A stretch of DNA of 64,000 bases. Source: Patescibacteria group bacterium (GTDB lineage Bacteria > Patescibacteriota > Patescibacteriia > GWA2-46-9). Positions 6,245 to 60,274 of this stretch are shown here, piece by piece (position 1 is the stretch's first letter; the number at the start of each line of letters is the position of its first letter). The position numbers were made by a program, and so were the translations under genes. Where the stretch lies: positions 26,172 to 90,171 of the forward strand of contig JBAYUF010000003.1 in the NCBI GenBank assembly GCA_041675205.1, given 5' to 3'. The notes below the pieces were generated by a model, which made no database searches, was not told where the DNA came from, and worked only from the letters and a program-made list of their open reading frames with translations.

Positions 6245-7861
6245 ATGATTGAAGTGGAACAGAGTCAAGATTACGTTCGGATTTTCGATACTACCTTGCG
6301 TGACGGCGAACAGGCGCCGGGCTGCACCATGGGTGCGCAGGAAAAGGTGCGGATGGCTGCGGTCATCGCCGACTTGGGGGTCAGCGTCATTGAGGCGGGG
6401 TTTGCGGCCGCGCGGGCTGGTGAACCCGAAGCGATTCGGGCAGTGGTTGCGGCAGTGGGTCGTGAATCTAACAGCCCCGTCATTTTGAGCCTGGCTCGGA
6501 CACGTCGAGATGACATCGATATGGCCCTTGCAGCGGTCAAAGATGCTGCGCATCCTGGAATTCACCTCTTCATTGCCACGTCGGAACTTCATCTGCGGGA
6601 GAAGTTGGTCATCCCGTTTGAGGAGGCACTTTCGCAGATGGTCGAGGCAGTGGAGTACGCCAAGCAATTTGTGGGGCACATCGAGGTCTCGGCGGAAGAT
6701 GCGACGAGAACTTCGCCGGATCGTCTGGTGGAATTCTACAAGGCACTGATTCGGGCTGGGGCTACGGTGTGCAACGTTCCCGACACGACCGGCTACGCCA
6801 CCGTGGACGACTACCGGGCGCTTTTTCGGAACTTGCTTCAGCAAGCCCGGGTTTGCGCGTGCAACAAGCGGCGACCATGTCATCACGTGACATGGAGTGC
6901 CCACGTTCATGACGACCTCGGCTTGGCAGTGGCGAAAAGTTTGGCGGCTGTTCAAGGTGGTGCACGCCAGGTCGAGTGTACGCTGCTCGGGATTGGTGAG
7001 CGGTGTGGCAACACTGCGCTTGAGGAAGTGGTGATGGCGCTTGATACGAGACAAGATCGGTTCGGTATCGCCACGCACGTTCATACCACGGGTTTGTGGC
7101 GAGCCTGTCAGGAACTGTCGCAAACCATCGGTTTTCCAATACCCATGAACAAGCCGGTTGTGGGGGCTAACGCCTTCGCGCACGAGGCTGGCATTCACCA
7201 AGATGGTGTTTTGGCAAATCGGGCGACGTACGAAATCATGTCGCCAGCCCGCATCGGTCGGCCCATCGATGAGCTCGTTCTGGGTAAGCACTCGGGTCGG
7301 AAAGGAATCAATGACAGGTTGCGAGCCTTGGGGGTCGACCTGGACGGCGTCGACATGAATTTGGTACTCGAAAGATTCAAGGCGTTGGCCGAAGCAAAAC
7401 GCGGGAGTCATGGCATCGACGACGCTGAGTTGTTGGCGCTACTGGTTGGTCCGAGCGATTGTGAGCGTTTTGTTCTGCGGTCTGCTTTTGGCAGTACTGC
7501 CTTGAACTCTGCGCACCGATCGCCGACGGCTCATGTGTTTTTGGTTGTCAATGGCCAAGAGCATGACCTTGAGCGAGACGGCGACGGCATCATCGATGCG
7601 GCTTTTGCGGCGGTTCAGGACATTACGCACTTGGATCCGCAACTGCTGGATTTTCAACTGCGTACGATTGGTCGGGCCACCGACGCCATGGGTCAAGCCG
7701 TGGTTGTACTTAAGTTGGATGGCACAGTCGTGCGAGGTGTGGGAGTTCATACTGACGTGACGATGGCTGCTTTGGAGGCCTATGTCAGCGGCTTGAACAA
7801 GCTCGAGCGGTTGCGTGAGTTTCGGGCGACGAATGGTCAGGTAACAGAACCGACGCCGTAG
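6245..7861 (+). CDS. leuA: 2-isopropylmalate synthase (LeuA family, with C-terminal regulatory domain)
   Basis: VRIFDTTLRDGEQAPG and HVHDDLGLAVAKSLAAVQGGARQVECTLLGIGERCGN motifs; 538 aa including a LeuA-type C-terminal domain; markedly GC-rich (~60%). Confidence 0.85.
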   Translation: MIEVEQSQDYVRIFDTTLRDGEQAPGCTMGAQEKVRMAAVIADLGVSVIEAGFAAARAGEPEAIRAVVAAVGRESNSPVILSLARTRRDDIDMALAAVKDAAHPGIHLFIATSELHLREKLVIPFEEALSQMVEAVEYAKQFVGHIEVSAEDATRTSPDRLVEFYKALIRAGATVCNVPDTTGYATVDDYRALFRNLLQQARVCACNKRRPCHHVTWSAHVHDDLGLAVAKSLAAVQGGARQVECTLLGIGERCGNTALEEVVMALDTRQDRFGIATHVHTTGLWRACQELSQTIGFPIPMNKPVVGANAFAHEAGIHQDGVLANRATYEIMSPARIGRPIDELVLGKHSGRKGINDRLRALGVDLDGVDMNLVLERFKALAEAKRGSHGIDDAELLALLVGPSDCERFVLRSAFGSTALNSAHRSPTAHVFLVVNGQEHDLERDGDGIIDAAFAAVQDITHLDPQLLDFQLRTIGRATDAMGQAVVVLKLDGTVVRGVGVHTDVTMAALEAYVSGLNKLERLREFRATNGQVTEPTP

Positions 7862-12300: not shown

Positions 12301-13916
<1,616 letters not shown>

Positions 13917-14004: not shown

Positions 14005-15228
14005 ATGAAAAGGTCGTTACCGACAATAACCGATGATGCAAAGCTGGCTGGACGGCGAGTGTTGGTTCGCATCGCCGCCGACGTTCCTCTGGTTGGTAAT
14101 CGGGTGACCGACGATTCGAGATTACGTGAAGCATTGCCGACCGTTGTTCGGTTACTGCGGGCAAATGCGAAAGTTATTCTTCTTGGTCACCTCGGTCGAC
14201 CGAAAGGTCGTGTACAGTCGGCCTTATCGCTTAAGCCAGTGGCAGAGCGACTACGGCAACTTTTACCTTCAGACGTGGGCGACGTTACGTTTGTCAGTAG
14301 TTGGAATCACCCCACGGTTGAAACGGCAGTGCGTCGACTTCGCAATAGAAATATTCTTTTTTTAGAAAATTTGCGCTTTCTCAAAGGCGAGGAAGCAAAT
14401 GATAAAGGCTTGGCCAAGTGGTTAGCGACTCTTGGAGACGTGTATGTGAATGAGTGCATATCAAACTCGCATCGCGCACACGCATCTATTGCCGGCGTGC
14501 CAAAATATATACCTCACTATATCGGCTGGGAGTTTGCGAAAGAACTTAACGCATTGCAGGATGTAGCCGCCAAACCGACACAACCGTTCGTTTTGCTGAT
14601 TGGTGGGGTAAAAGTTGAGGACAAAGTACCAATGCTTGTGCAGCTAGCAGCCGAGGCCAAAGCAATACTCGTTGGTGGCGCGGTGGCGAATACCTGTTTG
14701 CGACTGCGAGGCGTCGGTATTGGAAAATCTGCTTTTCTTTCTCGGCCGCCCCGTGCCTTGAAGTCAGTCTTATTGAAGCGAGTACGGTATGCGGGCGTAC
14801 GGGGTGCATTGTTGCAGGTCCCGCTTGATGTTGTTGTGGCTAAGCGAAGCAATGGTCCGTATCGTTTGGTTCGTTTTGCTCGCGGAGAGACCGTTGCCCC
14901 TACGGAAACCATTTTTGACATTGGACCAGAGACGACACGACTGTATGCGACGTTTATTAAAAAGGCCGAGACGATACTTTGGAACGGTCCGTTGGGTATG
15001 GTTGAAGTGCCCCCCTTTGATCAAGGCACAAAAGCTATTGCCCGGTTAGTCGCCGGTCGCTCTCGAGGATTAGCGTACGGTGTGGTTGGTGGTGGTGACA
15101 CGGTTGGCCTGTTTGATCAGCTTGGTATTCGTGGTGATCTTGATTACTGTTCAACGGCAGGGGGCGCCATGCTGACCTACTTAGCGAACAAACCTCTTCC
15201 GGGCTTAGTGGCTCTTGGAGTAAAGTAA
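14005..15228 (+). CDS. pgk: phosphoglycerate kinase
   Basis: Typical PGK N-terminus (RVLVRIAADVPL...ILLGHLGRPKG) and C-terminal GGGD...TAGGAML motifs. Confidence 0.9.
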   Translation: MKRSLPTITDDAKLAGRRVLVRIAADVPLVGNRVTDDSRLREALPTVVRLLRANAKVILLGHLGRPKGRVQSALSLKPVAERLRQLLPSDVGDVTFVSSWNHPTVETAVRRLRNRNILFLENLRFLKGEEANDKGLAKWLATLGDVYVNECISNSHRAHASIAGVPKYIPHYIGWEFAKELNALQDVAAKPTQPFVLLIGGVKVEDKVPMLVQLAAEAKAILVGGAVANTCLRLRGVGIGKSAFLSRPPRALKSVLLKRVRYAGVRGALLQVPLDVVVAKRSNGPYRLVRFARGETVAPTETIFDIGPETTRLYATFIKKAETILWNGPLGMVEVPPFDQGTKAIARLVAGRSRGLAYGVVGGGDTVGLFDQLGIRGDLDYCSTAGGAMLTYLANKPLPGLVALGVK

Positions 15229-15232
15229 GTCT

Positions 15233-16432
15233 ATGGATATTTTTGGTATTCGGCGACTCTCAGCGCATCCTGTTTTTACCGTGGACCATACTGACGGCGT
15301 TACTGTGGTGGCCGAGACGTTGGTTGGTCACCGTGGCGTCGCCGTAGTTGCGTTGCCGCACCATGTTGCGGTTGACATAGCGAATAGCATAAATAAGACA
15401 TTTCATAATGGGCTCTTGGGTTGTAACGCTACTGACCAGACTGCGGTTGACGATAGACTTACCGCTGTGCGCTCATCTCTGAAACAGACAACGCCACTCT
15501 CGGTTACCAGGGCAATTTCCACAGCCATTGCTCGAGCTGGTGCCAACGCGACTGGCCGTGAATTGGCAGCGCATTTGCGAGAATTTGCGCCATTCGCGGG
15601 ACCGGGTTGGCATGCGCCAACACCTGTCTTTGATGCCTTTGGGCAAGGTGAAGTCGGTGGTTTAGTGACCTTTGCAATTAATCCACGCCCGGCCCGCGGT
15701 GCGCGTCGTTCGATTTCACAACTATTAACCGCCGGTCGTCGTCTGTTTACTTTTTTACCACGATCACTGCACAGTATTGGGCACGTGCCTGTGGTGAGTT
15801 CGACGGGCGGTTGGCATACCCCCGACATTGGGGTACGCGACGCGCTCGATGCCTTGGTGCTCGCTCGACATACGGCTGGCATCGATGAAGCTGATATTCG
15901 TTTTGGTCTGCGGCGAGAACCGCACATATTTTTTGCACCTCATTTGGGCGTTCTGCAATCGGGGAATAACGACCAGCTAGTACTCGATACGGGGGCTTTA
16001 GGGGCGGCGTACGGTGAACTTGCTCGTCGGTATCCACTGGGCATGCTGGAAGACCCATTTCGTACGGACAGTTGGGAGCAGTGGCGAAGCGGTCGACAGC
16101 AGTTACCGAATACACAATTTATGGCTGACCGGGCGGTATCGTTGAGCGACACGGCGTTGGTGGCGGCGGCGACGAGCGATGCAATTCATGGCGTCGTTGT
16201 GAACATGGACTTGGCGCCAACACTTTCTGACGCTGTGCGTTTTGCTGTTCGTGCCAAAGGGGCTGGCCTTGATCGTTTAGTTGCCGCCGCAACTGACAGC
16301 ACTGATCCTGTCGCGGTTGATGTCGCGGTGGCCATTGGCGCTGAGTATATTCGTCTCGGCACCACCAGTCGCTTTGAACATGTTGGTCAGTACAATCGCT
16401 TAAACGAATTGGCGGTGTCACTTGGTTTATGA
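15233..16432 (+). CDS. enolase-like protein, highly divergent with substituted catalytic/metal residues (possible pseudoenzyme)
   Basis: Occupies the enolase position of a gap-pgk-X-gpmI operon. Clear enolase-like blocks (LVLDTGA, GMLEDPFRTDSWEQW, C-terminal YIRLGTTSRFEHVGQYNRLNELAVSLG). However, the SHRSGETED block reads AATDSTDPV, KVNQIG reads VVNMDL, and GDEGG reads SSTGG. GC is higher than the neighbouring genes. Confidence 0.6.
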   Translation: MDIFGIRRLSAHPVFTVDHTDGVTVVAETLVGHRGVAVVALPHHVAVDIANSINKTFHNGLLGCNATDQTAVDDRLTAVRSSLKQTTPLSVTRAISTAIARAGANATGRELAAHLREFAPFAGPGWHAPTPVFDAFGQGEVGGLVTFAINPRPARGARRSISQLLTAGRRLFTFLPRSLHSIGHVPVVSSTGGWHTPDIGVRDALDALVLARHTAGIDEADIRFGLRREPHIFFAPHLGVLQSGNNDQLVLDTGALGAAYGELARRYPLGMLEDPFRTDSWEQWRSGRQQLPNTQFMADRAVSLSDTALVAAATSDAIHGVVVNMDLAPTLSDAVRFAVRAKGAGLDRLVAAATDSTDPVAVDVAVAIGAEYIRLGTTSRFEHVGQYNRLNELAVSLGL

Positions 16433-17955
16433 TTGCTCGACAGCCGTTCGTTTTAGTAATCCTCGATGGGTGGGGTATTGCACCAGCCGGGCCGGGGAAC
16501 GCTATCGCCCTTGCTCATAAGCCAACCTATGATGCGCTTATTGAGCGTTATCCAGCAACGACAGTTACCGCTTCGGGGGACGCAGTTGGTTTGTTACACA
16601 ATGCGGCTGGAAACTCCGAAGCTGGTCACATGAATCTTGGTGGTGGTCGAATTGTGAAGCAGCAAGTGCGTATTATTTCTGACGCTATTGAAGATGGTTC
16701 TTTTTTTACTAATCCAGCGTTTTCTTCCTTGCTTCATCATGTTACAAGCGGCACGCGCCGAGTGCATTTGATGGGATTGTTATCAAGTGACCAAAGCCCG
16801 CATAGCCATCCGTCGCACCTGGTGGCACTCCGACAGTTATGCCGTGATGCGGGTGTTTCCGTTTTTTTTCATCTCTTTACAGATGGCCGCGATTCGTCGC
16901 CGCGCGCCGCAGCAGATTTTTTGAATGCGTTTGACCTGCACCCCAGTGAGCGCATTGCTTCGATTTGTGGGCGAGCGTATGCAATGGATCGTAAGAATGA
17001 TTGGTCGAGAACAGCAGCTGCGTACAACATGCTCGTCGATGGTCGCGGTGCACAGGCCGACAGCGCAGCCTCGGCAATTGCCGCAGCGTACGCGCGCGGT
17101 GAAACAGACGAGTTTATTACGCCGACAGTTATCGACGTCGACGGTTGCGTTCAAGACGGAGATGGGGTGCTGTTTTTTAATTTTCGAGCCGATCGGGCTC
17201 GACAATTAACAAAAGCGTTTGTGCAACCTGACTTTGAAGTAAAAAACCAGCCGGCCTTTGCCCGACGTCTACTTGCCAACCTGGCGTTCGTTACGCTGAC
17301 TGATTATGGCCCTGAACTGACGAAGGTGAAGTTTGGTTATCCTGAAATCACCGTGGCCGAGAGTTTGCCTTTTGCGCTGCAGTTACTACGGCAGTGTTAT
17401 ATTGGAGAGAGTGAAAAATTTGCCCACGTGACCTACTTTTTTAATGGTGGCCATGCTGGCCCGGTTGCTGGTGAAGAGCGTATTCGCATTTCTTCGCCTG
17501 ACGTCTTGCATTACGATACAGCGCCAGATATGGCTGCGGTAGAAATTACCGACGCAGTTTTGTCATCAATCGCTACAGAAAAAACTGAGTTCATTGTTGT
17601 TAATTTTGCGAACGCCGATATGCTGGGGCATACGGAAAACATAGCCGCGGCGGTGCGTGGGGTGGAATGTATTGATCGGTGTCTCGGGAGAATAGTGAAC
17701 GCTGCTTTAAAAAAACACGGAACAGTTCTTATTACCGCTGACCATGGTAATGCTGAAATCATGCGCACTCCTGACGGTCAACCATTCACCGAACATACCA
17801 CTTCGCCAGTACCTTGCATTGTCGTGAGTGAGCAGCTGCGAGCGAATCGCCAATCACTTCGGCCTGGCATTCTCGCTGATATTGCGCCGACAGTTCTTGA
17901 GCTTCTGCGCCTACCTAAGCCAGAGGGCATGACCGGTACGTCGCTTATTAGCTAA
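16429..17955 (+). CDS. gpmI: 2,3-bisphosphoglycerate-independent phosphoglycerate mutase
   Basis: VLVILDGWG...SGDAVGL...SEAGHMNLG... iPGM motifs; ATGA overlap with upstream gene. Confidence 0.9.
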   Translation: MIARQPFVLVILDGWGIAPAGPGNAIALAHKPTYDALIERYPATTVTASGDAVGLLHNAAGNSEAGHMNLGGGRIVKQQVRIISDAIEDGSFFTNPAFSSLLHHVTSGTRRVHLMGLLSSDQSPHSHPSHLVALRQLCRDAGVSVFFHLFTDGRDSSPRAAADFLNAFDLHPSERIASICGRAYAMDRKNDWSRTAAAYNMLVDGRGAQADSAASAIAAAYARGETDEFITPTVIDVDGCVQDGDGVLFFNFRADRARQLTKAFVQPDFEVKNQPAFARRLLANLAFVTLTDYGPELTKVKFGYPEITVAESLPFALQLLRQCYIGESEKFAHVTYFFNGGHAGPVAGEERIRISSPDVLHYDTAPDMAAVEITDAVLSSIATEKTEFIVVNFANADMLGHTENIAAAVRGVECIDRCLGRIVNAALKKHGTVLITADHGNAEIMRTPDGQPFTEHTTSPVPCIVVSEQLRANRQSLRPGILADIAPTVLELLRLPKPEGMTGTSLIS

Positions 17956-23011: not shown

Positions 23012-23047
23012 ATAAAAAGAACCCCGACTTGTCGGGGTTCTTTTTAT
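23012..23047. terminator. bidirectional intrinsic terminator (after rplL and after the convergent 23047-25185 gene)
   Basis: GAACCCCGAC-TT-GTCGGGGTTC stem flanked by AAAAA on the left and TTTTT on the right. Confidence 0.75.
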
Positions 23048-25185
23048 TATTGTCCCAGTGGCACTTCTAAAATAGTTGAGTCGCTGAGAAGGTATAGCGT
23101 ACGACCGTCGTTTGAAATACTGAAATCACGAATCTCTCTGTCCGCTAAAGCGTACTGATGAAGTAATTTTCCTGAAGATTTTTCCCAAATTACAATACGG
23201 TGTTGGCTTGCATCAAGCGCGTAGAGGTATGGTGATTGTGCTCGGCCAATAAGTTTTTTGAAATCTCCGCTGGCATCTACCGGCGCGTTAGCAATCCAGG
23301 TATCACGAGCGCCGGCGGAGAAACGAATGATGCTGCCAGAACGACTTAGTACATACACCGAACCATCAACCACTATTCCTGAGGCGTTAGCCACTTCCGC
23401 CGGTGCGGTACCAGAGAGCCACGGCGCCGGACTGCCGAAGCCGCTCGATGAGTTAGTAAATCGGTAAATTTGTTTTTCACTTGGAACAACAGCGTAGAGC
23501 CGCCCGTTATAGAATGCAACATCGATACTGTTTGGAAACGTCGCTGTAAAAGGTATAGCGGTTAACGTGTTTGTTTCTGAAGAAAAAGTTGCGAGACCCG
23601 GACCGTCTGTCATGAGAATAATACCCTCAGCGTCATCAAGTTTTACGGAACGCACTGAAGGAACATTTACAGAAGTGACTGGTAATTTGGTGAGGACGCC
23701 GTTTGTAAAACCAGCCACGGCATTGTCGGATTGAAAAACATAGAGCGAATCTTTGCTGGCTACTATACCGATGGGTGCCGCGAGCATCGTGGCAGGTATG
23801 GCGGCGATGGTTTTGGCGTCTGAGATAATTGTTACTTTGGCAATTCGTTCGCGGATACTTTTAAGTTGCGCTTCGAGCACCGCTCGCTCTTCACGTTGAC
23901 GCGTGGTGCGTTGTGGGTAATTGGTAATGAGCGTCGTCGCCTCTGCGATAAGTTGAGCAGCAGAAGTGTCGTCGCCAAAGATGATGCTTGATTCGGCGCG
24001 ATCAAGTTTGTCCTGGGCACTAGTAATAAGCTCATTATTTTGCGTTATGGTCTGCTGGCGAGTTTGTCTGTCAGCCAAGTACACCAATGTTTGACTAAAG
24101 AGGTAGGCAAAGAGAAGCGCGATAATCAGTAAGCGTTGGCTACGGCGGGGGAGTTGTGAAAGGTGATGCGAAATCTTTTTCATGAGCGCGTTCCAGCGGT
24201 CAGTCGTTATTCGCGGTTGTGAAATAGTTGGAATGGTTTTGCCACGAATTCTGTCCGGTATGGTAACGAGTAAAACCATGCTGTGTATGACAGCACCAGC
24301 TACGAGACGCAATGTCTGGCCAATCTGTTCACTCGCGGCTTGCGGTAGTCCTGGCCGCTTTCGTAGTACACCCTTTAAGGTTGAAATTGCTGGATACCCC
24401 TCCGGCGCTAAAAGGGTTGCCGTTGTTTGCCGTTGCTGTTCCAACGATGCCATTGAGGCAGTGACGCCCGTTTTACCAGCTGCCACTGGCAGTGTTTCAC
24501 CGATACGTAAGAGCAGCGCGCCAAAACCCATGCGCCCGTGAAGACTCATTAATGCTTGCTCAAGGACGGCCCTGGCCCCGTCGATTGGTTCATCAGCAAT
24601 AATATTTTCGATACGGGGTAAACCCAATGCGTCTAGTATTGATTCAGTTGTCATAAATAAGGTGTCGCCCTTACTGCCAGTACCACTTACAATACTGGCG
24701 GTGGCCAGCCCGGTATCCTTTTCCATTTTGCTTTTCCCCGTTGCAGTAACGGGAACCCAACGGAAGTGGCGACTGCCATCAGTTGACGTATGGCCATGCA
24801 ATAGGTAGCCAGCAATGTCACCGCGGTGGGTTAGGTGAATGTGCGTGTCATTTACCGCGCCAAGACAAAAAGATACGTCGTCATATTTTACTGACTTTGT
24901 TTCAAGCAGTAGTTGGCGTAACTTTTTGACCAAACGTTGCCGAGTCGCGGCCAATGCCCGGTCAACCGTTGCTGCGGGCTTGGCAGATTCTTCAGCAAAC
25001 ATGCGAACAGTAAAATCAATGAGGCCACGCACCCATTGAACAAGAGGTTCGATTTCATTTACCTTAATCAGAACAAAGAACGTCAGCTCACCGCCGTCGT
25101 TTTTTGCTGCCAGTGTTACCTTTCCTACGACGGTATCAAGTGCCGTCTTGGGGGCTACAAGAATTGTATTTTTTGTGTACGCCAT
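23047..25185 (-). CDS. membrane protein: N-terminal PP2C-like cytoplasmic domain, one TM helix, C-terminal beta-propeller-like repeat domain
   Basis: 712 aa. N-terminal region carries PP2C-like blocks (FCLGAVNDTHIHLTHRGDIAGYLL ... TGSKGDTLFMTTESILDALG), a central hydrophobic helix (LLIIALLFAYLFSQTLVYL), and a C-terminal half with repeated Y/F-x-x-x-G-x-hydrophobic strand motifs. Confidence 0.5.
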   Translation of the reverse strand: MAYTKNTILVAPKTALDTVVGKVTLAAKNDGGELTFFVLIKVNEIEPLVQWVRGLIDFTVRMFAEESAKPAATVDRALAATRQRLVKKLRQLLLETKSVKYDDVSFCLGAVNDTHIHLTHRGDIAGYLLHGHTSTDGSRHFRWVPVTATGKSKMEKDTGLATASIVSGTGSKGDTLFMTTESILDALGLPRIENIIADEPIDGARAVLEQALMSLHGRMGFGALLLRIGETLPVAAGKTGVTASMASLEQQRQTTATLLAPEGYPAISTLKGVLRKRPGLPQAASEQIGQTLRLVAGAVIHSMVLLVTIPDRIRGKTIPTISQPRITTDRWNALMKKISHHLSQLPRRSQRLLIIALLFAYLFSQTLVYLADRQTRQQTITQNNELITSAQDKLDRAESSIIFGDDTSAAQLIAEATTLITNYPQRTTRQREERAVLEAQLKSIRERIAKVTIISDAKTIAAIPATMLAAPIGIVASKDSLYVFQSDNAVAGFTNGVLTKLPVTSVNVPSVRSVKLDDAEGIILMTDGPGLATFSSETNTLTAIPFTATFPNSIDVAFYNGRLYAVVPSEKQIYRFTNSSSGFGSPAPWLSGTAPAEVANASGIVVDGSVYVLSRSGSIIRFSAGARDTWIANAPVDASGDFKKLIGRAQSPYLYALDASQHRIVIWEKSSGKLLHQYALADREIRDFSISNDGRTLYLLSDSTILEVPLGQ

Positions 25186-42615: not shown

Positions 42616-43083
42616 ATGGCTACACCAGAAATTAAAAGAGAATACACGGCAACCCCCGAGCAAGAGTTCAGTGAAACTGCTCCGCAAACTATTCCGAGAA
42701 CCGCAGTACCCGATAGCGCTGAGCCCGTGGCGCGCGCGGTGCCGCAACCGGTGTTGGTGCCAATTGTTTCCCCCCTTCAATCAGCACCAAAAAGTCAGAC
42801 ACTGCAAGAGATAGAAACGATTATGGCCGAAGATTTGGCGGGCATATACGCTTCACTTGATGCACCAACCAGAAGCGCCTTAAGGGTGTCTGGAGAGCAG
42901 GCAGCATTGAAGATTAGCATTCTTTTGCAATCAGCCAGTTCGCAATTAATTAAAATTATCAAAATCATTCGCGATTGGTTGCGAACCATTCCGGGCATTA
43001 GCTGGGCTTTTATTGAGCAGGAAACAAAAGTGAAAACAGGTAAGCTTTTGCGTCTTACCGATAAGCACGATAGGTATGAGTAG
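42616..43083 (+). CDS. hypothetical protein
   Basis: 155 aa, Pro/Ala-rich N-terminus; no motif recognised. Confidence 0.35.
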   Translation: MATPEIKREYTATPEQEFSETAPQTIPRTAVPDSAEPVARAVPQPVLVPIVSPLQSAPKSQTLQEIETIMAEDLAGIYASLDAPTRSALRVSGEQAALKISILLQSASSQLIKIIKIIRDWLRTIPGISWAFIEQETKVKTGKLLRLTDKHDRYE

Positions 43084-45607
43084 CTTCCTCCCAGCAGTGC
43101 CAAGTATAAACGAACTCACCGCCACAGTGCTCGTGTGGGGTATGATTAGCGCCGCGACGGCCCTTCTTTTTCTTTTCGTACTCTACGTATTTTATCGCCG
43201 TTTGTATCATACTGGTGCATCGTTTAACAAGGTAACCTTACTCATTACCGTACCAAAGCGTAGTCAGCAGCAAGATGAAGACAGTACGATTGAAAAAATC
43301 CGTCAGCAGATAGCCGTAGCGGAAACATTTTTTGCGGCGATTGCGGGGCTTCGAGCGGACAGAAGCGTTAGTTCCTATGTACTTGGTCGTCGTGACCATC
43401 TGTCTTTGGAACTCGTTGCTTCACAAGGCCTTCTCTCTTTTTACATTGTCGTGCCAGCGTCACTTCGTCGTTATGTTGAACAGCAAATTCATGCGCAATA
43501 TCCTGATGCCAATATTGACGTCGTCATTGAGCCAAACATTTTTTTATCACATGGCGTGGTTCGAGCTGCTGGGCTGCGTTTTCGTCGTTCGTTTATGTTT
43601 CCATTGCGTACGTATAATGATATAGAAACAGACCCCTTAGCGGCTGTAACGAACGCATTTAGTCGGGTGGGTACGAATGGTGCTGCGTTGCAAATAGTTA
43701 TTCGCTCTGCCAAGCGACGATGGCATAGGTTTGGGCAGCGAACGGCAGCTGAATTTCATCAGGGTCACTCATTCCGCGAAGCATATGCCCGTGGTCAGCG
43801 AAGCACCTTTATGCGTGGCGTGTCAGCCTTTATGCGGGCATTTCATAATCAAGCGATGCCAAAACAGCCAGCGGCACAAGCCGAGCAGGTACGGCCACAT
43901 CAACTGTCGGCCCTCGAGCAAGAGATGGCTAAACGGGTTGAACAAAAGACAAGTAAGGCTGGCGTTGAGGCGAACATTCGTATAGTGGTCTCGGCCAGTA
44001 CTGAACATGATGCCGATAGAATGCTTGATAATATGGTGCAAACGTTCAGTCAGTATAACCTTTACCAGTACGGTAACAGTTTCGTTCCCGTGCGAGTCCG
44101 CCGGCAAGTGGCATTCATACGGCGGTTTATCCATCGTCAATTTGTTCGTCGCAATTCGGTAATTCTGAACACGGAAGAGCTCGCCAGTCTATTTCATTTT
44201 CCATTGCCCTCGACCGAGACGCCGAATATTCGTTGGTTGCGTTCAAAGAAAGCCCCGCCGCCAAATGAGTTGCCTGACGAAGGCATAGTGTTGGGTGTCA
44301 ATCGATATCGCGGCGTAGATCGCGTTGTTCATTTTGACCCGGCCGATCGTCGTCGGCACTGCTACATTATTGGTACCACCGGCTCCGGAAAATCAGTGCT
44401 GATGGGGGAGATGGCCAAGCAAGATATTAAGGCCGGGCACGGGGTTTGTATTATTGATCCGCACGGCTCATTGGTTGAAGAAATACTTGAGAGTATACCG
44501 CCGGAGCGAGCCAAAGACGTCATTTATTTTGATCCGTCAGATACTGATCGGCCACTCGGGCTGAACATGCTCGAAGCCACGACGCCAGCCGAAATGGATT
44601 TTGCGACACAGGAAATGATTGCCATTTTCTACAAGCTGGTGAGCGACCCTTCAATGATTGGTCCAATGTTCGAACATAACATGCGTAACGCCATGCTAAC
44701 GCTTATGGCTGACCCGTCGGCACCAGGGACGCTTGTGGAGATTCCCCGCATGTTCACTGACACTGAATTTCAGCGTCGTAAGGTAAAAAATCTAACTGAT
44801 CCGATAGTCAAAGCCTTTTGGGAACAAGAAATGGCCAAGACGTCAGACTTTCACAAATCGGAAATGCTTGGGTATCTCATTTCAAAAGTTGGTCGATTCA
44901 TCGAGAATGCCATGATGCGAAACATCATTGGTCAGCCGAATTCGGCTTTTGATTTCCGTCGCGTTATGGATGAGAAGAAGATTTTTCTTGTGAATCTTTC
45001 AAAAGGAAAAATTGGAGAAATGAATGCGAATTTATTGGGCCTTATTATTGTTTCTAAGCTGCAAATGGCCGCGCTGTCTCGGGCTGACTCTCCGGCCGAT
45101 TCATTTCCCGACTTTTATCTTTACATCGATGAATTTCAGAACTTCATCACGGATTCGATTGCGACGATTCTTTCTGAAGCTCGAAAGTACAAGCTCAACC
45201 TTGTTATGGCGCACCAGTACGTTGGTCAACTCGTCCAAGGACAGGATACAAAAATTCGCGATGCGGTATTGGGGAATGTGGGTACGATAATTAGTTTTCG
45301 GGTGGGCGTTGAAGATGCTGAGGTTTTGGCCAAAGAGTTTGCTCCGGTCTTTAGTGAGTACGACCTGATTAATGTTGATCGTTATCACGCCTACGTTCGA
45401 CTATTGGTCCACAATAGTGTCACCCGGCCGTTCGACATAGACACCTATCCGCCAACTATTGGTTCTGCCGAACGGGCACTTTTACTTCGTGAAGCATCAC
45501 GGCTTCGCTACGGTAAAGATCGGCAGTCGGTTGAGAATGACATTCTTCTGAGAAGTAAAATTGGCCAGCTGGGTGTTACAAATGCGGTCGACGGGCCAGC
45601 ACGATAG
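43076..45607 (+). CDS. membrane-anchored VirD4/TraG/TraD-like (DUF87-type) P-loop ATPase
   Basis: N-terminal TM helix; Walker A YIIGTTGSGKSV, DPHG, Walker B LYIDEFQNF, plus blocks typical of type IV coupling / HerA-FtsK-like ATPases. Confidence 0.5.
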   Translation: MSSFLPAVPSINELTATVLVWGMISAATALLFLFVLYVFYRRLYHTGASFNKVTLLITVPKRSQQQDEDSTIEKIRQQIAVAETFFAAIAGLRADRSVSSYVLGRRDHLSLELVASQGLLSFYIVVPASLRRYVEQQIHAQYPDANIDVVIEPNIFLSHGVVRAAGLRFRRSFMFPLRTYNDIETDPLAAVTNAFSRVGTNGAALQIVIRSAKRRWHRFGQRTAAEFHQGHSFREAYARGQRSTFMRGVSAFMRAFHNQAMPKQPAAQAEQVRPHQLSALEQEMAKRVEQKTSKAGVEANIRIVVSASTEHDADRMLDNMVQTFSQYNLYQYGNSFVPVRVRRQVAFIRRFIHRQFVRRNSVILNTEELASLFHFPLPSTETPNIRWLRSKKAPPPNELPDEGIVLGVNRYRGVDRVVHFDPADRRRHCYIIGTTGSGKSVLMGEMAKQDIKAGHGVCIIDPHGSLVEEILESIPPERAKDVIYFDPSDTDRPLGLNMLEATTPAEMDFATQEMIAIFYKLVSDPSMIGPMFEHNMRNAMLTLMADPSAPGTLVEIPRMFTDTEFQRRKVKNLTDPIVKAFWEQEMAKTSDFHKSEMLGYLISKVGRFIENAMMRNIIGQPNSAFDFRRVMDEKKIFLVNLSKGKIGEMNANLLGLIIVSKLQMAALSRADSPADSFPDFYLYIDEFQNFITDSIATILSEARKYKLNLVMAHQYVGQLVQGQDTKIRDAVLGNVGTIISFRVGVEDAEVLAKEFAPVFSEYDLINVDRYHAYVRLLVHNSVTRPFDIDTYPPTIGSAERALLLREASRLRYGKDRQSVENDILLRSKIGQLGVTNAVDGPAR

Positions 45608-55941: not shown

Positions 55942-56619
55942 ATGGACGCTCTGACATTCGCTTCTGCTCCAAAACATAGCCTATCGAACGAAGATAGATT
56001 AAAACGGATTACCGAGGAATTTCGAGAAGGGTTTACCCTTGCCGAAACCATTCAGCGTGGCGTAACAATATTTGGCTCGGCCAGGGTTAAGCCGGGTGAG
56101 CCAAGCTATAATCAGGCACGGCAATTGGGTTTTTCTTTGGCTAAGGATGGGTACACTATTATTACAGGTGGTGGCCCTGGCATCATGGAGGCGGCAAATC
56201 GTGGTGCGCGAGAGGCGGGTGGTCGTACGGTTTCTTTTAATATCGACCTCATCAAGGAGCAGGGAAATGCTTACGTAGATGCGTCGGTAACCTCGTACTA
56301 TTTTTTTGTTCGGAAGGTTATGTTGGCCAGCGCCGCGCATGCCTATGTTTTTTTCCCTGGCGGCTTTGGTACCCTTGATGAGTTCTTTGAGATTTCAACG
56401 CTCATTGATACGCATAAGTTGCATGAGGATGTTCCAATGGTGCTGATGGATAAAGAGTATTGGGAGCCATTACTGCGTTGGCTTCGTACAACGGTTGTCG
56501 AACGGTATCATAGTGTAACGCCTGCCGAGTTCCGCATGTGGCGACTGGCAGAAAATGTGGCTGACGCGGTCGATGTGGTGAAGCAATGCAGTGGTCGGAT
56601 GGGGGTCTGTAGGTATTAA
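55942..56619 (+). CDS. LOG-family (TIGR00730) nucleotide-binding protein
   Basis: GVTIFGSARVKPGEPSY, ITGGGPGIMEAANRGA and FPGGFGTLDEFFE motifs. Confidence 0.75.
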   Translation: MDALTFASAPKHSLSNEDRLKRITEEFREGFTLAETIQRGVTIFGSARVKPGEPSYNQARQLGFSLAKDGYTIITGGGPGIMEAANRGAREAGGRTVSFNIDLIKEQGNAYVDASVTSYYFFVRKVMLASAAHAYVFFPGGFGTLDEFFEISTLIDTHKLHEDVPMVLMDKEYWEPLLRWLRTTVVERYHSVTPAEFRMWRLAENVADAVDVVKQCSGRMGVCRY

Positions 56620-56629
56620 TAATCAAACC

Positions 56630-57475
56630 GTGAAGCGAAACGGCTACACCTTAGTTGAGCTCATCATCGGCACCAGTATCATGCTGCTGCTTTCAAGTGT
56701 GGCGTATAGCAGTTTTCGAGGGCTCGAGTTTCGACTTCGGCTTGAATCGACTGCCCAGAATATAATGCGGACACTTGAAGAAGCACAGACTCGAACGATT
56801 GCCGCTCGTAGCGACACTAATTACGGTGTCCATTTTGATGCTACTTCGTATACGTTGTTTCCAGGTGGCACGTACGCTGTCGGTGCGGTTGGTAACGAGG
56901 TACATGAACTACCGAGCGGTGTGGCCATGGCGGTCAGTATTGGTGATGGTAGCGATGTCGTATTTGAACGTGTTCGTGGTGTTGCCAGTGCGAGTGGAAC
57001 AGTAATTGTTTCCCTCACGAGTGATCCTACGCTGACCCGCACGGTGGTCATTAATCTTTTGGCGCCAGCACAGTTGTCATCTGCCGTAGCGCCGATAAAT
57101 ACTCGCCTTGTTGATACCCGCCACGTCGATTTTAATTTGGGCTGGGGTATTCAGTCTGCTACGACGTTACGTCTCGTTTTTCATAATCCACCCAGTGCGG
57201 ATGTTACGGAAGACATCCCCATGGCTAGCTACCGAGCATCGGATTCCACGTCGTTTGATTGGTCAGGAGTAGTGGGCGTGAATGGGGACAATCAAACAAT
57301 GCGCATTCATACGCACACCATGACGCCTACTACTACGGTACTCAGTGTTCATCGTGATAGACGTTTTAACACGAAAGCTGTGGACATTTTGATAGATGGA
57401 CAAGCTATTGCGTCCTTTGCTGCAGACGGCACCTTAACGACGCAAGGCAGCGGTGGTGTGTCGACAGTCCAATGA
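56630..57475 (+). CDS. type IV pilin-like (prepilin-type) protein
   Basis: GTG start gives MKRNG|YTLVELIIGTSIM (class III signal, G-Y-x-x-x-E); 5' end overlaps the LOG gene slightly. Confidence 0.65.
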   Translation: MKRNGYTLVELIIGTSIMLLLSSVAYSSFRGLEFRLRLESTAQNIMRTLEEAQTRTIAARSDTNYGVHFDATSYTLFPGGTYAVGAVGNEVHELPSGVAMAVSIGDGSDVVFERVRGVASASGTVIVSLTSDPTLTRTVVINLLAPAQLSSAVAPINTRLVDTRHVDFNLGWGIQSATTLRLVFHNPPSADVTEDIPMASYRASDSTSFDWSGVVGVNGDNQTMRIHTHTMTPTTTVLSVHRDRRFNTKAVDILIDGQAIASFAADGTLTTQGSGGVSTVQ

Positions 57476-57963
57476 GTATGTTTAAAAAAGAACATCGTCG
57501 CGGCTTCGGTATTCTAGAAATTTTAATCGTTGCCGGGATTGTGGCGCTCATTATCCCGAGCATGTTTCAATTTGGTTTTTTTATGACTGCCGCAATGAAT
57601 CGGCGCAGTAATGTTGTTGAAGCCACGTATATAGCGGAAGAAGGAATTGAAGCTATTCGTACTATCCGCGATCGTGGCTGGTCGACAGAAATATTTCCAC
57701 TTGCCAATGGAACCGTCTACTATCCAGTCATTCAGAATAATAATTGGACCGTGACGACGACAAACCCCGGGCCAGTCCAGGGAATATATACGAGAACAGT
57801 AACCTTCGCAGCTGTTCAACGCGATGGCAGCGACAATATCACCAGCAGTGGAGCAACTGACTCGAAAACACGACTCGTTACTGCTGTCGTGTCATGGAGT
57901 GATGCCGGGCAGGCGCGAGCAGTGACACTGGAAACCTACATAACTGATTTTAAAGGTAATTAA
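57472..57963 (+). CDS. type IV pilin-like / pseudopilin
   Basis: MSMFKKEHRRG|FGILEILIVAGIVALI prepilin N-terminus. Confidence 0.55.
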   Translation: MSMFKKEHRRGFGILEILIVAGIVALIIPSMFQFGFFMTAAMNRRSNVVEATYIAEEGIEAIRTIRDRGWSTEIFPLANGTVYYPVIQNNNWTVTTTNPGPVQGIYTRTVTFAAVQRDGSDNITSSGATDSKTRLVTAVVSWSDAGQARAVTLETYITDFKGN

Positions 57964-58002
57964 ATGTTGCGTTCTGCGCCGAAGCGTAAGTCGAAGACCA
58001 CC

Positions 58003-58521
58003 ATGAATCGCACGGGTTTCTCCCTGGTTGAATTAATTGTCTATATCGGGCTTTTGGTGGCGGTCGTTGGTCTTATTACGCAGCTCACCGGGCAACTGCT
58101 AACGGTATTGCGCACGACTGAAGCGACAGAGGCTGTTATAGGGAGCACTCGTAATGCCATGGATGTAATAGCGCAAGAAATACGTCATAGTGACAGCGTG
58201 TACACACCAACGTCACTCTTTGCGGCTACGAACGGACAGTTAAGTTTAGAGACTCTGCGAGATGCGCCAGACGGAGAAACAGTGACCTACGTTGATATCT
58301 ATGTAGATTCCGGAGCGCTATACTTGAAGCGAGAAGGTGAAACAGCCGAGCGTCTAACAGCGGCGGGCGTGACAGTTACGCAGTTTGAACTCATGCACCT
58401 TAATCAATTAAGTATTCCGGCCGTGCGCATAAGTATCGTTGCAACTGCCGGAAGTGGAGTAACCGGTGCTTTACGACCATTCACACTTACGTCCACCGTA
58501 GCGCTGCGCTCCTATGATTAA
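58003..58521 (+). CDS. type IV pilin-like / pseudopilin
   Basis: MNRTG|FSLVELIVYIGLL prepilin N-terminus (start at internal ATG 58003 of ORF 57964-58521). Confidence 0.6.
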   Translation: MNRTGFSLVELIVYIGLLVAVVGLITQLTGQLLTVLRTTEATEAVIGSTRNAMDVIAQEIRHSDSVYTPTSLFAATNGQLSLETLRDAPDGETVTYVDIYVDSGALYLKREGETAERLTAAGVTVTQFELMHLNQLSIPAVRISIVATAGSGVTGALRPFTLTSTVALRSYD

Positions 58522-60274
58522 TATCATTTCGCGGACACATTTTCCCAAAGGTCAGGCGGCAATTATTGGTGCCATTCTGGCTTTTGTTGTCAGTTCTTCA
58601 GTTGTTGCGTCCGTTGGCGACACGGTAATTCGTAGACTGCATTCTATTGAAGACGTACCAGCCTCACTGCAAAGTTACTATGCCGCCGAGTCGGGTGTGG
58701 AGGATGCTTTACTTCGTCTTATCGACGTTGACTACACCGTACCCGACAATTATTCTGTAACCGTAAATGGGGCAAGCGCCGTCGTCACGATTGATCAATC
58801 GGGGAATTCTGTCACGGTGCGAGCGGCGGGAGACAATAATGACCGAGCCCGAACTGTTGAGGCCTCCCTTACGGCGAACTCGGCTGGTGCTAGTTTTAGC
58901 TATGGTATTCAAGTGGGCGACGGGGGACTGACGATGCGAGATAACTCTGTTGTTTATGGCAATGTGTATTCTAACGGCAGCGTTGTTGGGACGAATCACG
59001 CCACAATAACTGGTGACGTTATTGTGGCCACGGGTACACCAAGCACAGCCGACGCCGAGTATACCTTCGCAAACGCTGATCACTCACTTTCAACGGCCAG
59101 TGCAACTCGAGCAGCGGCTCAGTCGTTTCGACCCGCTACTTCCGGACTACTCACACAGGTTGCTGTTAATATAGCGAAAGTTGGCACGCCGACTGACAAT
59201 TTGAGATTACGGATAGCTACTGATAACAGCAATAAACCGTCCGGTACAGTACTCGCGCTTGTGCAAGTTCCGGCGGCTGTGGTTGGTACAACTGCATCAT
59301 GGATAACGCTCGGCATTGACGATCCACCCACTTTGACGGCAGGTACTAGGTATTGGCTTGACCTTGATACCGGTACGAGTTCACCGAATAATTATTGGAA
59401 GTGGCGTAAAGACACCAGCGACGCATACCCGAACGAAACAGCCAAGACCGCCTCGAGCTGCTGTTCGAATGGAACAAGCTGGTCGAACATGAATGCCGAT
59501 CTAGATTTCAGAACTTGGGTTGGTGGTTCGCCAACCAGAATTGAAGGCATGATCATTGGTGACGCGACAAGCGGTAGTGGTCGAGCCAATACATTTGTCG
59601 AGAGCACTATACACGGTTCACCCTGCCCCAATGCGTATTGCATTACAGATTCACCTACCCCAAGTCAAATGCCAATTTCTGAGGGGCTTATTCAAGATTG
59701 GCGAGATCAAGCCGAGGCTGGTGGAACGTGCGCGCCACCCGTTTGCGACAGCAATGGTAATCTGGAGATATCTGGTCAAGGGAACACCGTCACTATTGGT
59801 CCTTTGAAAATTGATGGCGATCTAACCATAACGAACTATGGGGAACTGGTTCTCACTGGCACGGTATGGGTAACGGGGAATATTGATTTCAATAATCATT
59901 GTTCAGTCCGGCTTGATGAAGGCTACGGCGTTGGCTCAGGGGTCATACTCGCCAGTGGTTGGATTGATGCCGCGAATCACTGCAGTTTTAGTGGCTCAGG
60001 TGAAGCGGGTAGTTATCCACTTGTCATTACGACCTATGCTGATACTGATGAACTGGCCATCGATCTCAATAATAATTCCAGCGGTGTTATCTTCTACGCC
60101 AGCGCCGGAACAATAGAAATAAGTAACGGCTCCGCGGCTAATAGTTTGGTTGGTTATGCAATTAGTATTAAAAATAACGCCACTATTACCTATGATTCCG
60201 GATTACTTGACATGAACTTTACGAATGGCCCAACTGGTGGGTGGACGATTAACTCATGGAAAGAAGTTGAGTGA
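58514..60274 (+). CDS. large pilus-associated protein (PilX/PilY-like) with N-terminal membrane anchor
   Basis: 586 aa, N-terminal hydrophobic segment, Gly/Asn/Thr-rich beta-type sequence; follows three pilin genes. Confidence 0.4.
   Translation: MINIISRTHFPKGQAAIIGAILAFVVSSSVVASVGDTVIRRLHSIEDVPASLQSYYAAESGVEDALLRLIDVDYTVPDNYSVTVNGASAVVTIDQSGNSVTVRAAGDNNDRARTVEASLTANSAGASFSYGIQVGDGGLTMRDNSVVYGNVYSNGSVVGTNHATITGDVIVATGTPSTADAEYTFANADHSLSTASATRAAAQSFRPATSGLLTQVAVNIAKVGTPTDNLRLRIATDNSNKPSGTVLALVQVPAAVVGTTASWITLGIDDPPTLTAGTRYWLDLDTGTSSPNNYWKWRKDTSDAYPNETAKTASSCCSNGTSWSNMNADLDFRTWVGGSPTRIEGMIIGDATSGSGRANTFVESTIHGSPCPNAYCITDSPTPSQMPISEGLIQDWRDQAEAGGTCAPPVCDSNGNLEISGQGNTVTIGPLKIDGDLTITNYGELVLTGTVWVTGNIDFNNHCSVRLDEGYGVGSGVILASGWIDAANHCSFSGSGEAGSYPLVITTYADTDELAIDLNNNSSGVIFYASAGTIEISNGSAANSLVGYAISIKNNATITYDSGLLDMNFTNGPTGGWTINSWKEVE

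Follow-up and report, generated by a model that had tools for sequence, protein, structure and literature searches.

A candidate pseudo-enolase in the gap-pgk-gpmI block of Patescibacteria

In the mechanism of enolase, a lysine base, a glutamate acid and two Mg2+ ions serve to abstract the C2 proton. Here we describe an open reading frame (ORF), referred to as X, which occupies the enolase position of a gap-pgk-X-gpmI block in a Patescibacteria group bacterium, a groundwater organism with a tiny genome, and encodes a predicted enolase-fold protein with a degenerate active site. X lies in a stretch of 64,000 nucleotides (contig JBAYUF010000003.1, positions 26,172 to 90,171; assembly GCA_041675205.1), called the window below, to which all coordinates given without a locus name refer. 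Its sequence suggests a pseudoenzyme derived from enolase that should not be filed as a phosphopyruvate hydratase. As judged from the residues it carries, it is highly probable that X is not a working enolase, and we consider it likely that the protein is kept for a non-catalytic role and is co-expressed with PGK.

Inactive relatives of enolase are known from eukaryotes, among them Arabidopsis ENO3/ENOc, an enolase-like protein reported to be without activity. These proteins share with X the loss of catalytic residues, the preservation of the fold and the retention of the gene by selection. They are, however, extra paralogues found beside active enolases in large genomes. X, in contrast, fills the one enolase slot that can be seen in an ultra-small bacterial genome, and it is conserved at this position in deep lineages. 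A further precedent is provided by enolases that act as scaffolds, such as those of the E. coli RNase E degradosome (2FYM/5OHG) and of complexes 9NO4 and 9NO2, in which the fold is a catalysis-independent platform for protein binding, the role proposed here for X. Complexes of this moonlighting kind (RNase E; Csm/AcrIIIA2/enolase, 9NO4; RibD-enolase, 9NO2) were found among the fold matches of X. Unlike X as we propose it, the scaffold enolases are still catalytically active.

The nearest published concept appears to be the hypothesis of in-situ paralogues for the enolases of Methanococci and Thermococci (arCOG01169/arCOG01170; Makarova, Wolf and Koonin 2015, PMC4390880). There, the archaeal in-situ copies combine an ancestral gene context with fast evolution and are proposed to retain an ancillary, non-glycolytic function only; X likewise combines its ancestral context with a much faster evolution. 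The archaeal copies lie next to ribosomal protein S2 genes, and rpsB-tsf is found just upstream of gap-pgk-X. The archaeal case differs from ours in three respects: a second copy per genome was demonstrated there, X being known from the slot copy alone; loss of catalytic residues, as seen in X, is not known to be reported for the archaeal branch; and it concerns another domain of life and another operon. Our search of the literature on pseudoenolases and inactive bacterial enolases found no enolase of bacteria, or of the candidate phyla radiation (CPR), described as both conserved and catalytically dead.

Compared to canonical enolase (EC 4.2.1.11; TIGR01060; PF03952 and PF00113; E. coli Eno, 6D3Q and 1E9I; yeast ENO1), X has the same two-domain fold and the same gpmI-adjacent position in a glycolytic block. 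The two share the blocks DQxxVD, the S-x-A helix, RYP...EDPF, GT(L/V)S and the C-terminal GAEY..G....E..AKYNRLLEL. X is about 25-30 residues shorter than canonical enolase, has gained the motifs HLRxFAPFxGPGW and NxRxxRGxxR, and is devoid of the base, the acid, the His, the second Lys, the phosphate-binding Arg, the lid loop and one metal ligand.

Enolase homology and active-site residues of X

The gene under study is as follows.

15233..16432, + strand: X, enolase-fold protein with a degenerate active site, candidate pseudo-enolase (Pfam, TIGR01060, phmmer, AlphaFold2)

X starts with ATG and forms a single intact frame of 399 codons that begins 4 nt after the pgk stop and whose TGA shares the sequence ATGA with the gpmI start codon. 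A first-pass annotation of this DNA had placed X in a gap-pgk-X-gpmI block with an ATGA overlap onto gpmI. Pfam identified the neighbours as these lower-glycolysis genes, and the gpmI start was indeed found at 16429, inside the end of X. The protein is a 100% match to NCBI entry MFA7286481.1 ('hypothetical protein WC052_02365'), from a 180 kb contig of a Patescibacteria group bacterium metagenome-assembled genome (MAG; ENA ERZ27247358, contig k141_2283382), and records at NCBI, ENA and JGI contain independent assemblies of this sequence.

By Pfam, X matched Enolase_C with 53.6 bits (E 2.7e-14), above the cutoff of 21.5, and Enolase_N with 23.7 bits, under the cutoff of 35. Its score against TIGR01060 ('eno') was 79.1 bits, about a quarter of the cutoff of 300, so that of the curated family cutoffs only that of Enolase_C was passed. 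The best sequence match in the PDB was yeast enolase (phmmer, E 5e-19). An AlphaFold2 model built from a 131-sequence alignment reached a predicted local distance difference test (pLDDT) score of 91.1 and a predicted template modelling (pTM) score of 0.91. In this model, the N-terminal capping domain is followed by the C-terminal beta-beta-alpha-alpha(beta-alpha)6 barrel of the two-domain enolase fold. The top 50 Foldseek matches of the model in the PDB were all enolases (TMq 0.83-0.89, 18-22% identity), with a TM-score of about 0.87 and an identity of about 20% to E. coli enolase. X is a true but weak enolase homologue with the predicted enolase fold, and thus has both homology and fold in common with an active enzyme family. 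The confident model and a full-length alignment in one frame rule out the frameshift or sequencing artefact that the first-pass annotation had considered. The C-terminal block and the LEDPF...W block on which that annotation had based its enolase assignment do align with the family; the 'LVLDTGA' that it also cited lies within a variable loop and has no diagnostic value.

Databases disagree on the group to which X belongs, UniProt and IMG labeling its members 'Enolase' and NCBI 'hypothetical protein'. A metabolic survey of the CPR used a cutoff of 215 bits for TIGR01060 (PMC7304191); with its 79 bits, X would lead such a survey to score enolase as absent even though the protein is present.

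X was mapped to the numbering of yeast ENO1 using a phmmer alignment and two MAFFT alignments, all of which were concordant. All twelve reference residues of the yeast sequence used fell at the expected numbers. Yeast numbering is used below unless residues are said to be those of X. Two of the ten core catalytic and metal-binding residues, E295 and D320, are retained. The sites concerned, as read from the alignments, are listed here.

15350..15367, + strand: approximate site (X residues ~40-45, LPHHVA) at which lid loop L1 (SGASTG, S39) and the next ~17-25 canonical residues are deleted; gaps at yeast 37-45
15668..15715, + strand: T146...INPRPARGARRSI, X residues 146-161, in place of canonical QEFMIxPxGAxxFxEA; E168 is replaced by T146
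15797..15811, + strand: SSTGG, X residues 189-193, in place of GDEGG; T191 of X stands at the general acid E211
15911..15913, + strand: R227 of X at metal ligand D246, which is Asp in the other seven orthologues
16049..16054, + strand: E273-D274 of X, equivalent to E295-D296; metal ligand kept in X, the two positions being kept in only 3/8 and 4/8 orthologues
16127..16129, + strand: D299 of X, equivalent to metal ligand D320; kept in X and in 3/8 orthologues overall
16202..16204, + strand: N324 of X at the catalytic base K345 (LLKVNQ changed to VVVNMD)
16283..16291, + strand: A351-A352-A353 of X at S372-H373-R374; catalytic His and phosphate-binding Arg lost
16352..16354, + strand: R374 (X numbering) at K396

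Both members of the K345/E211 pair are thus missing from X, and so are the auxiliary residues E168, H373, K396 and R374/S375. Where canonical enolases have SHRSGET, X reads AAATDST, with S375 changed to Ala and R374 aligned to a gap or to Ala. The trio of carboxylate Mg2+ ligands (D246, E295, D320) is broken by the change of D246 to R227. Both mobile loops are deleted, L1 together with S39, a ligand of the second Mg2+, and L2 together with H159, which falls in alignment gaps. An alignment of 68 canonical enolases has 63 columns with an identity of 90% or more, and X matches 23 of these. Three of the losses had been noted in the first-pass annotation, namely those in SHRSGETED, in the segment of the catalytic Lys and in GDEGG, and each was borne out by the mapping (H373 to Ala with loss of R374, K345 to Asn and E211 to Thr, respectively). 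The damage goes beyond that list to include E168 to Thr, D246 to Arg, K396 to Arg and the deletion of the S39 loop and of H159. The same annotation had allowed for a catalytic Lys, Glu and His at shifted positions, and the profile alignment places none there. The whole protein contains three lysines, none of them aligned to the active site or near the pocket, so that there is no 'shifted' catalytic Lys.

Positional orthologues, selection and the fate of gpmI

When 1.8 billion representatives were searched exhaustively with HMMER, only a few relatives proved nearer to X than ordinary enolases. Word-indexed homology searches recovered distant canonical enolases almost exclusively and missed the true orthologues of X, and an alignment-based scan of genome contigs found X orthologues in only two species. 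A metagenome scan revealed no additional orthologous lineage, the matches at L019 and L020 being distant enolase-like sequences of 22-24% identity. Together, X and seven further positional orthologues from four more lineages make up eight proteins in five lineages of Patescibacteria, with the common gene order rpsB-tsf-gap-pgk-X-(gpmI)-fpg-HAD-NUDIX-yceG-pyrH. In three further lineages the block was found including its upstream part (L25 / prmC-prfA-rpmE / rpsB-tsf-gap-pgk-X-gpmI-fpg-HAD-NUDIX-yceG-pyrH): Ca. Uhrbacteria CG10_..._48_11 (L001-4/L008; Uhrbacteria orthologue A0A2M8LE27), a second Patescibacteria MAG (L009) and a Kabuno-type freshwater lineage (P0008; L005/6/16/21) from whose slot gpmI is missing. 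The remaining four proteins (P0017, P0027, P0140 and P0157; contigs of the last three, L013/L014, L023 and L007) form a more distant clade B with the order pgk-X-(gpmI remnant)-fpg. The distance from the pgk stop to the start of X is 1-4 nt in all five lineages, P0008 fitting this rule with an upstream start.

As regards that start, the one called for P0008 (L005:9969-11280, L016, L021:6736-8047) is probably 9 codons short. An upstream ATG, giving MRVTDIRYL..., lies 4 nt past the pgk stop and yields an N-terminus like that of the other orthologues; P0158 is P0008 read from this upstream start codon.

All orthologues of X are degenerate, at sites that are partly different. Across the eight proteins, E168, E211, H373, R374, S39 and Q167 are kept in none, K396 in 1/8, K345 in 2/8, and E295 and D320 in 3/8 each; D246 is kept in 7/8, the exception being X of the window. 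The four closest orthologues have 14 of the 63 canonical high-conservation columns in common, and these include no catalytic, metal-binding or substrate-binding position. The least derived of the proteins, P0008, still has H159, GG156-157, D320-D321 and R405, and its similarity to canonical enolases (33-34%) equals that to its orthologues. The behavior of the substitutions in relatives had been named as a check in the first-pass annotation: E168, E211, H373 and R374 are absent throughout, and the other losses vary. In X itself, essential residues have thus been lost (2/10 retained) with no conserved replacement. The residue losses common to all orthologues point to an ancient inactivation, and the lineage-specific erosion of the remaining ligands argues for relaxed constraint on a dead pocket rather than for a re-engineered active site.

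The protein as a whole is under purifying selection and is not decaying, as judged from substitution patterns. The five lineages share only 44-71% identity in their housekeeping proteins, and X is a full-length intact ORF in each of them. In the L007/L023 pair, the ratio of nonsynonymous to synonymous substitution rates (dN/dS) of X was 0.13 (dS 1.05), against 0.026 for the adjacent pgk fragment and 0.09 for the gpmI remnant. Synonymous sites were saturated in all comparisons within the group of X (clade A), including every one involving X of the window, so that clean dN/dS values come from clade B only. L001-L004 are identical in DNA sequence, as are L005, L006 and L021, and were uninformative in this respect. 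Between L003 and L009, the proportion of nonsynonymous differences (pN) in X was 0.32, with a saturated synonymous value (pS) of 0.80; the pN values of its neighbours were 0.15 (gap), 0.21 (pgk), 0.24 (gpmI) and 0.38 (prmC). Identity between lineages was 34% for X, 69-71% for gap, 46-52% for pgk and 55% for gpmI. The rate at which X evolves is therefore two to five times that of its glycolytic neighbours, and the gene is still constrained, which is the retention under purifying selection expected of a pseudoenzyme.

Residues specific to the clade are found in two places. One is the inter-domain linker, as follows.

15572..15610, + strand: HLREFAPFAGPGW, X residues 114-126, inter-domain linker; 11/13 identical in the four closest orthologues, with no counterpart in canonical enolases

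In X numbering, H114, R116 and W126 of this linker motif, whose consensus is HLRxFAPFxGPGW, are invariant in the four closest orthologues, and so are N150, R152, G156 and R159 of the Arg-rich NxRxxRGxxR that replaces the E168 strand. R348 and E371 are present in 8/8 orthologues, and R405 is changed to His in 7/8. The two motifs may form a new interaction surface of X. Clade B does not share them, and there is no single new site that all orthologues have in common.

The glycolytic genes around X, and what is left of gpmI in clade B, are listed here.

12903..13916, + strand: gap (GAPDH), apparently intact, first glycolytic gene of the block (Pfam Gp_dh_N/C)
14005..15228, + strand: pgk, apparently intact, stop 4 nt before X (Pfam PGK, 362 bits)
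16429..17955, + strand: gpmI, cofactor-independent phosphoglycerate mutase (iPGM), looks intact (Pfam Metalloenzyme and iPGM_N)
L013:3233-4051 and L014:1844-2662, with partial copies at L007:2436-3044 and L023:1761-2054: clade B gpmI remnant

In the gpmI of the window, the motifs ILDGWG, GNSEAGH, DGRD, GRAYAMDR, FRADRA, EKFAHVT, ADMLGH, ADHGN and EHTT are all present. The protein scores 396 bits to the iPGM of B. stearothermophilus (1EJJ), with the catalytic Ser and the metal and substrate motifs in place. The P0008 lineage (L005/L016/L021), in turn, has no gpmI between X and fpg and reads pgk-X-fpg. The clade B remnant encodes 272 residues without the iPGM_N phosphotransferase domain and carries the changes S62 to Tyr, H407 to Ser, D444 to Ser and H462 to Asn (L013); its N-terminal 98 codons show a dN/dS of about 0.09, indicative of purifying selection. 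From its sequence, this remnant looks like a second retained pseudoenzyme beside the pseudo-enolase.

Elsewhere in the CPR (L010/L011), a canonical enolase, P0010, with all ten core residues (10/10) is encoded directly upstream of gpmI, which implies that X descends from the resident enolase of the block and not from an inserted gene. The known arrangements can thus be laid out as a series: a canonical eno beside gpmI; a dead eno with a live gpmI, as in the window; a dead eno and no gpmI; and a dead eno with a dead gpmI stub. This series looks like a stepwise dismantling of lower glycolysis in which the enolase-fold protein was kept throughout. The one constant partner of X across lineages is pgk. 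Because gpmI is intact, missing or a dead stub depending on the lineage, the role of X would be independent of it.

Further features of the window and of the enolase set

The base composition of X bears on its origin. The first-pass annotation had described the gene as GC-richer than its neighbours, and the excess is real (54.8% for X vs 49.7% for the window). By codon position, GC content was 66% at the first, 50% at the second and 47.8% at the third position (GC3), the last being like that of the neighbours. Since the excess sits in the first two positions, it reflects a composition rich in Ala, Gly, Arg and Pro and not a foreign origin, and horizontal transfer was rejected as its source. 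The calculated isoelectric point (pI) of X is near neutral, at 6.8. As a diagnostic of the group, pI was discarded, values among the orthologues ranging from 6.1 to 9.1 and some canonical CPR enolases being basic too. The PGK of the window is strongly basic (calculated pI 10.2), and its Fpg, FtsW and PyrH are also basic. A scan for promoters and terminators gave background numbers (12 sites vs 10.8 expected, and 19 vs 14.5) with no bearing on operon structure.

A set of 142 full-length enolase-like sequences was composed of the query, its best full-length matches and the added orthologues. All ten core residues are kept in 68 of the 142, and 26 keep five or fewer; the low scorers include P0011, P0037, P0038, P0051, P0063, P0086, P0092, P0115, P0125, P0126 and P0130. 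Degenerate enolases may therefore recur in metagenomic lineages beyond the clade of X. P0011, with 5/10 core residues, is encoded in a PGM-PGI-PPDK-eno block (L012). A separate enolase subgroup carries the paired changes E168 to Asp and H373 to Ala (QDF..., SARSGET) with the other eight core residues intact, and consists of P0001-P0006, P0022, P0030, P0059, P0071, P0081, P0091, P0113, P0152 and P0155.

Away from the glycolytic block, the following ORFs of the window were noted.

6245-7861, + strand: LeuA/homocitrate-synthase-like gene (HMGL-like, HCS_D2 and LeuA_dimer)
32820-34151, + strand: IS110/IS116-family transposase-like ORF (weak Transposase_20 match)
43076-45607, + strand: TrwB/TraG-like type IV coupling-protein ATPase, 843 residues
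23047-25185, - strand: ORF of 712 residues
56591-60274, + strand: four consecutive ORFs of 294, 163, 185 and 586 residues

The LeuA-like gene is a compositional outlier, with a GC content of 57.6% and a GC3 of 62% where its neighbours have about 46%. Its synteny nevertheless extends to the Uhrbacteria and P0008-lineage loci, and the enzyme is of an amino-acid biosynthesis type unusual in a CPR genome. The transposase-like and TrwB/TraG-like ORFs suggest mobile-element or DNA-uptake content downstream of the division and cell-wall cluster. Neither the ORF at 23047-25185 nor the four at 56591-60274 had a Pfam match at E<=1e-5, and these are best described as uncharacterized CPR proteins.

Alternative explanations and significance

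We propose that X descended from an enolase gene that was ancestrally located beside gpmI in a gap-pgk-eno-gpmI block, and that in a deep Patescibacteria lineage (Uhrbacteria-like Parcubacteria) the catalytic apparatus of this enolase was lost and its fold kept. The resulting pseudoenzyme, going by its residues, would be unable to dehydrate 2-phosphoglycerate (2-PG) to phosphoenolpyruvate (PEP) and would have been kept for a non-catalytic job of the enolase scaffold, most likely the binding or scaffolding of a partner. That it is made in step with PGK is suggested by the tight coupling to pgk in every lineage. Several observations weigh against this proposal. The inactivity of X is a prediction from its residues, and two of the three Mg(I) ligands, E295 and D320, survive in X of the window. 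The gpmI translationally coupled to X is intact, as would be expected were 2-PG still passed on. The sole clean dN/dS (0.13) comes from the more distant clade B, comparisons with X of the window being dS-saturated. In a neighbour-joining tree the eight degenerate proteins formed an exclusive clade, to which long-branch attraction may contribute. The new motifs are presumably surface-exposed and away from the old pocket, a placement that we take from the enolase topology, and the putative partnership with PGK is drawn from gene adjacency.

The evidence supports the second of the two readings offered in the first-pass annotation, that of a non-catalytic or retargeted protein, over an extraordinarily divergent yet functional enolase, which we regard as very improbable. 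The operon slot and the translational coupling to gpmI are those expected of a working enolase, E295 and D320 are retained, and UniProt and IMG label the orthologues 'Enolase'; yet such an enzyme would need its Lys base, Glu acid and two Mg2+ ions, and K345, E211, E168, H373, K396, R374, D246, S39 and H159 are gone with no nearby substitute in a protein of three lysines. Its orthologues, furthermore, vary freely at the catalytic sites, the NCBI pipeline withholds the enolase name and X reaches about a quarter of the TIGR01060 cutoff. Nor does X resemble a decaying pseudogene or an assembly or frameshift artefact, an explanation to which we give hardly any credence. X is the fastest-evolving gene of the block, level with prmC, but its ORF is intact and full-length in five lineages, with a dN/dS of 0.13 and a pN well below pS, its fold is confidently predicted and one and the same sequence was assembled independently for NCBI, ENA and JGI. 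With no shifted residues, an active site free of constraint and a protein under purifying selection, the suggestion of a non-catalytic enolase-fold protein in the glycolytic operon stands, less the word 'paralog': by its position X is orthologous to the resident enolase, and paralogy is no more than possible. A neofunctionalized enzyme, using the enolase barrel for another reaction or substrate by way of new residues such as H114, R116, R152, R159 or R348, would also be under purifying selection. It could explain the invariant polar H114, R116, W126, N150, R152 and R159 of the four closest orthologues and R348 and E371 of all eight, and catalytic residues can migrate in pseudoenzymes, according to PMC10211241. 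We nonetheless find it improbable. The ancestral-pocket positions are unconserved over the eight orthologues except for D246, which is lost in X of the window; three carboxylate metal ligands on barrel strands, the hallmark of the superfamily, have not been preserved; clade B lacks the clade-A motifs, leaving no new site common to all; and most of the conserved residues are also structural in canonical enolases.

A further explanation agrees that X is non-catalytic and differs in that lower glycolysis stays intact: a second, canonical enolase elsewhere in the genome, gained through duplication or horizontal acquisition, would serve glycolysis, the slot copy being, after subfunctionalization, a fast-evolving in-situ paralogue with an ancillary role. 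MurA uses PEP, and the peptidoglycan genes of the window (ftsW, a penicillin-binding protein, a Mur ligase and uppS) indicate a cell that needs a PEP source; an intact gpmI coupled to X is also sensible if 2-PG is still consumed. The same arrangement has been proposed for archaeal enolases, the context-retaining copy in Methanococci and Thermococci being the fast-evolving one (PMC4390880). On the other side, tblastn found no second enolase in the 64 kb window, redundant copies are rare in streamlined genomes, gpmI is lost or gutted in two sister lineages, which fits a dismantled lower glycolysis, and reports on Parcubacteria describe enolase as patchy or absent there (PMC4508563, PMC7304191). 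We hold this explanation to be possible but somewhat doubtful. The decay of gpmI in the sister lineages and the patchy record of enolase in Parcubacteria favor a true loss of the step from 2-PG to PEP. It may thus be, and we put this forward tentatively, that these genomes encode no enolase homologue other than X, that the step from 2-PG to PEP was abandoned with gpmI following at lineage-specific speeds, and that the enolase protein, joined in one clade by a gutted iPGM, was kept in the form of non-catalytic subunits co-expressed with PGK.

Enolase is among the most conserved enzymes and is usually assumed to be active; here it appears gutted and nevertheless selected in its ancestral slot in several deep CPR lineages. 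'Enolase' labels on such proteins overstate glycolysis and threshold-based surveys would miss the protein altogether, which bears on the 'patchy' distribution of enolase in the CPR and Parcubacteria. The group of X suggests that, independently of catalysis, the enolase scaffold has a use that makes it worth retaining under extreme streamlining, and offers a testable case of moonlighting. If X is truly the sole enolase homologue of its genome, core glycolytic enzymes would have been turned into structural or regulatory parts in ultra-small cells.

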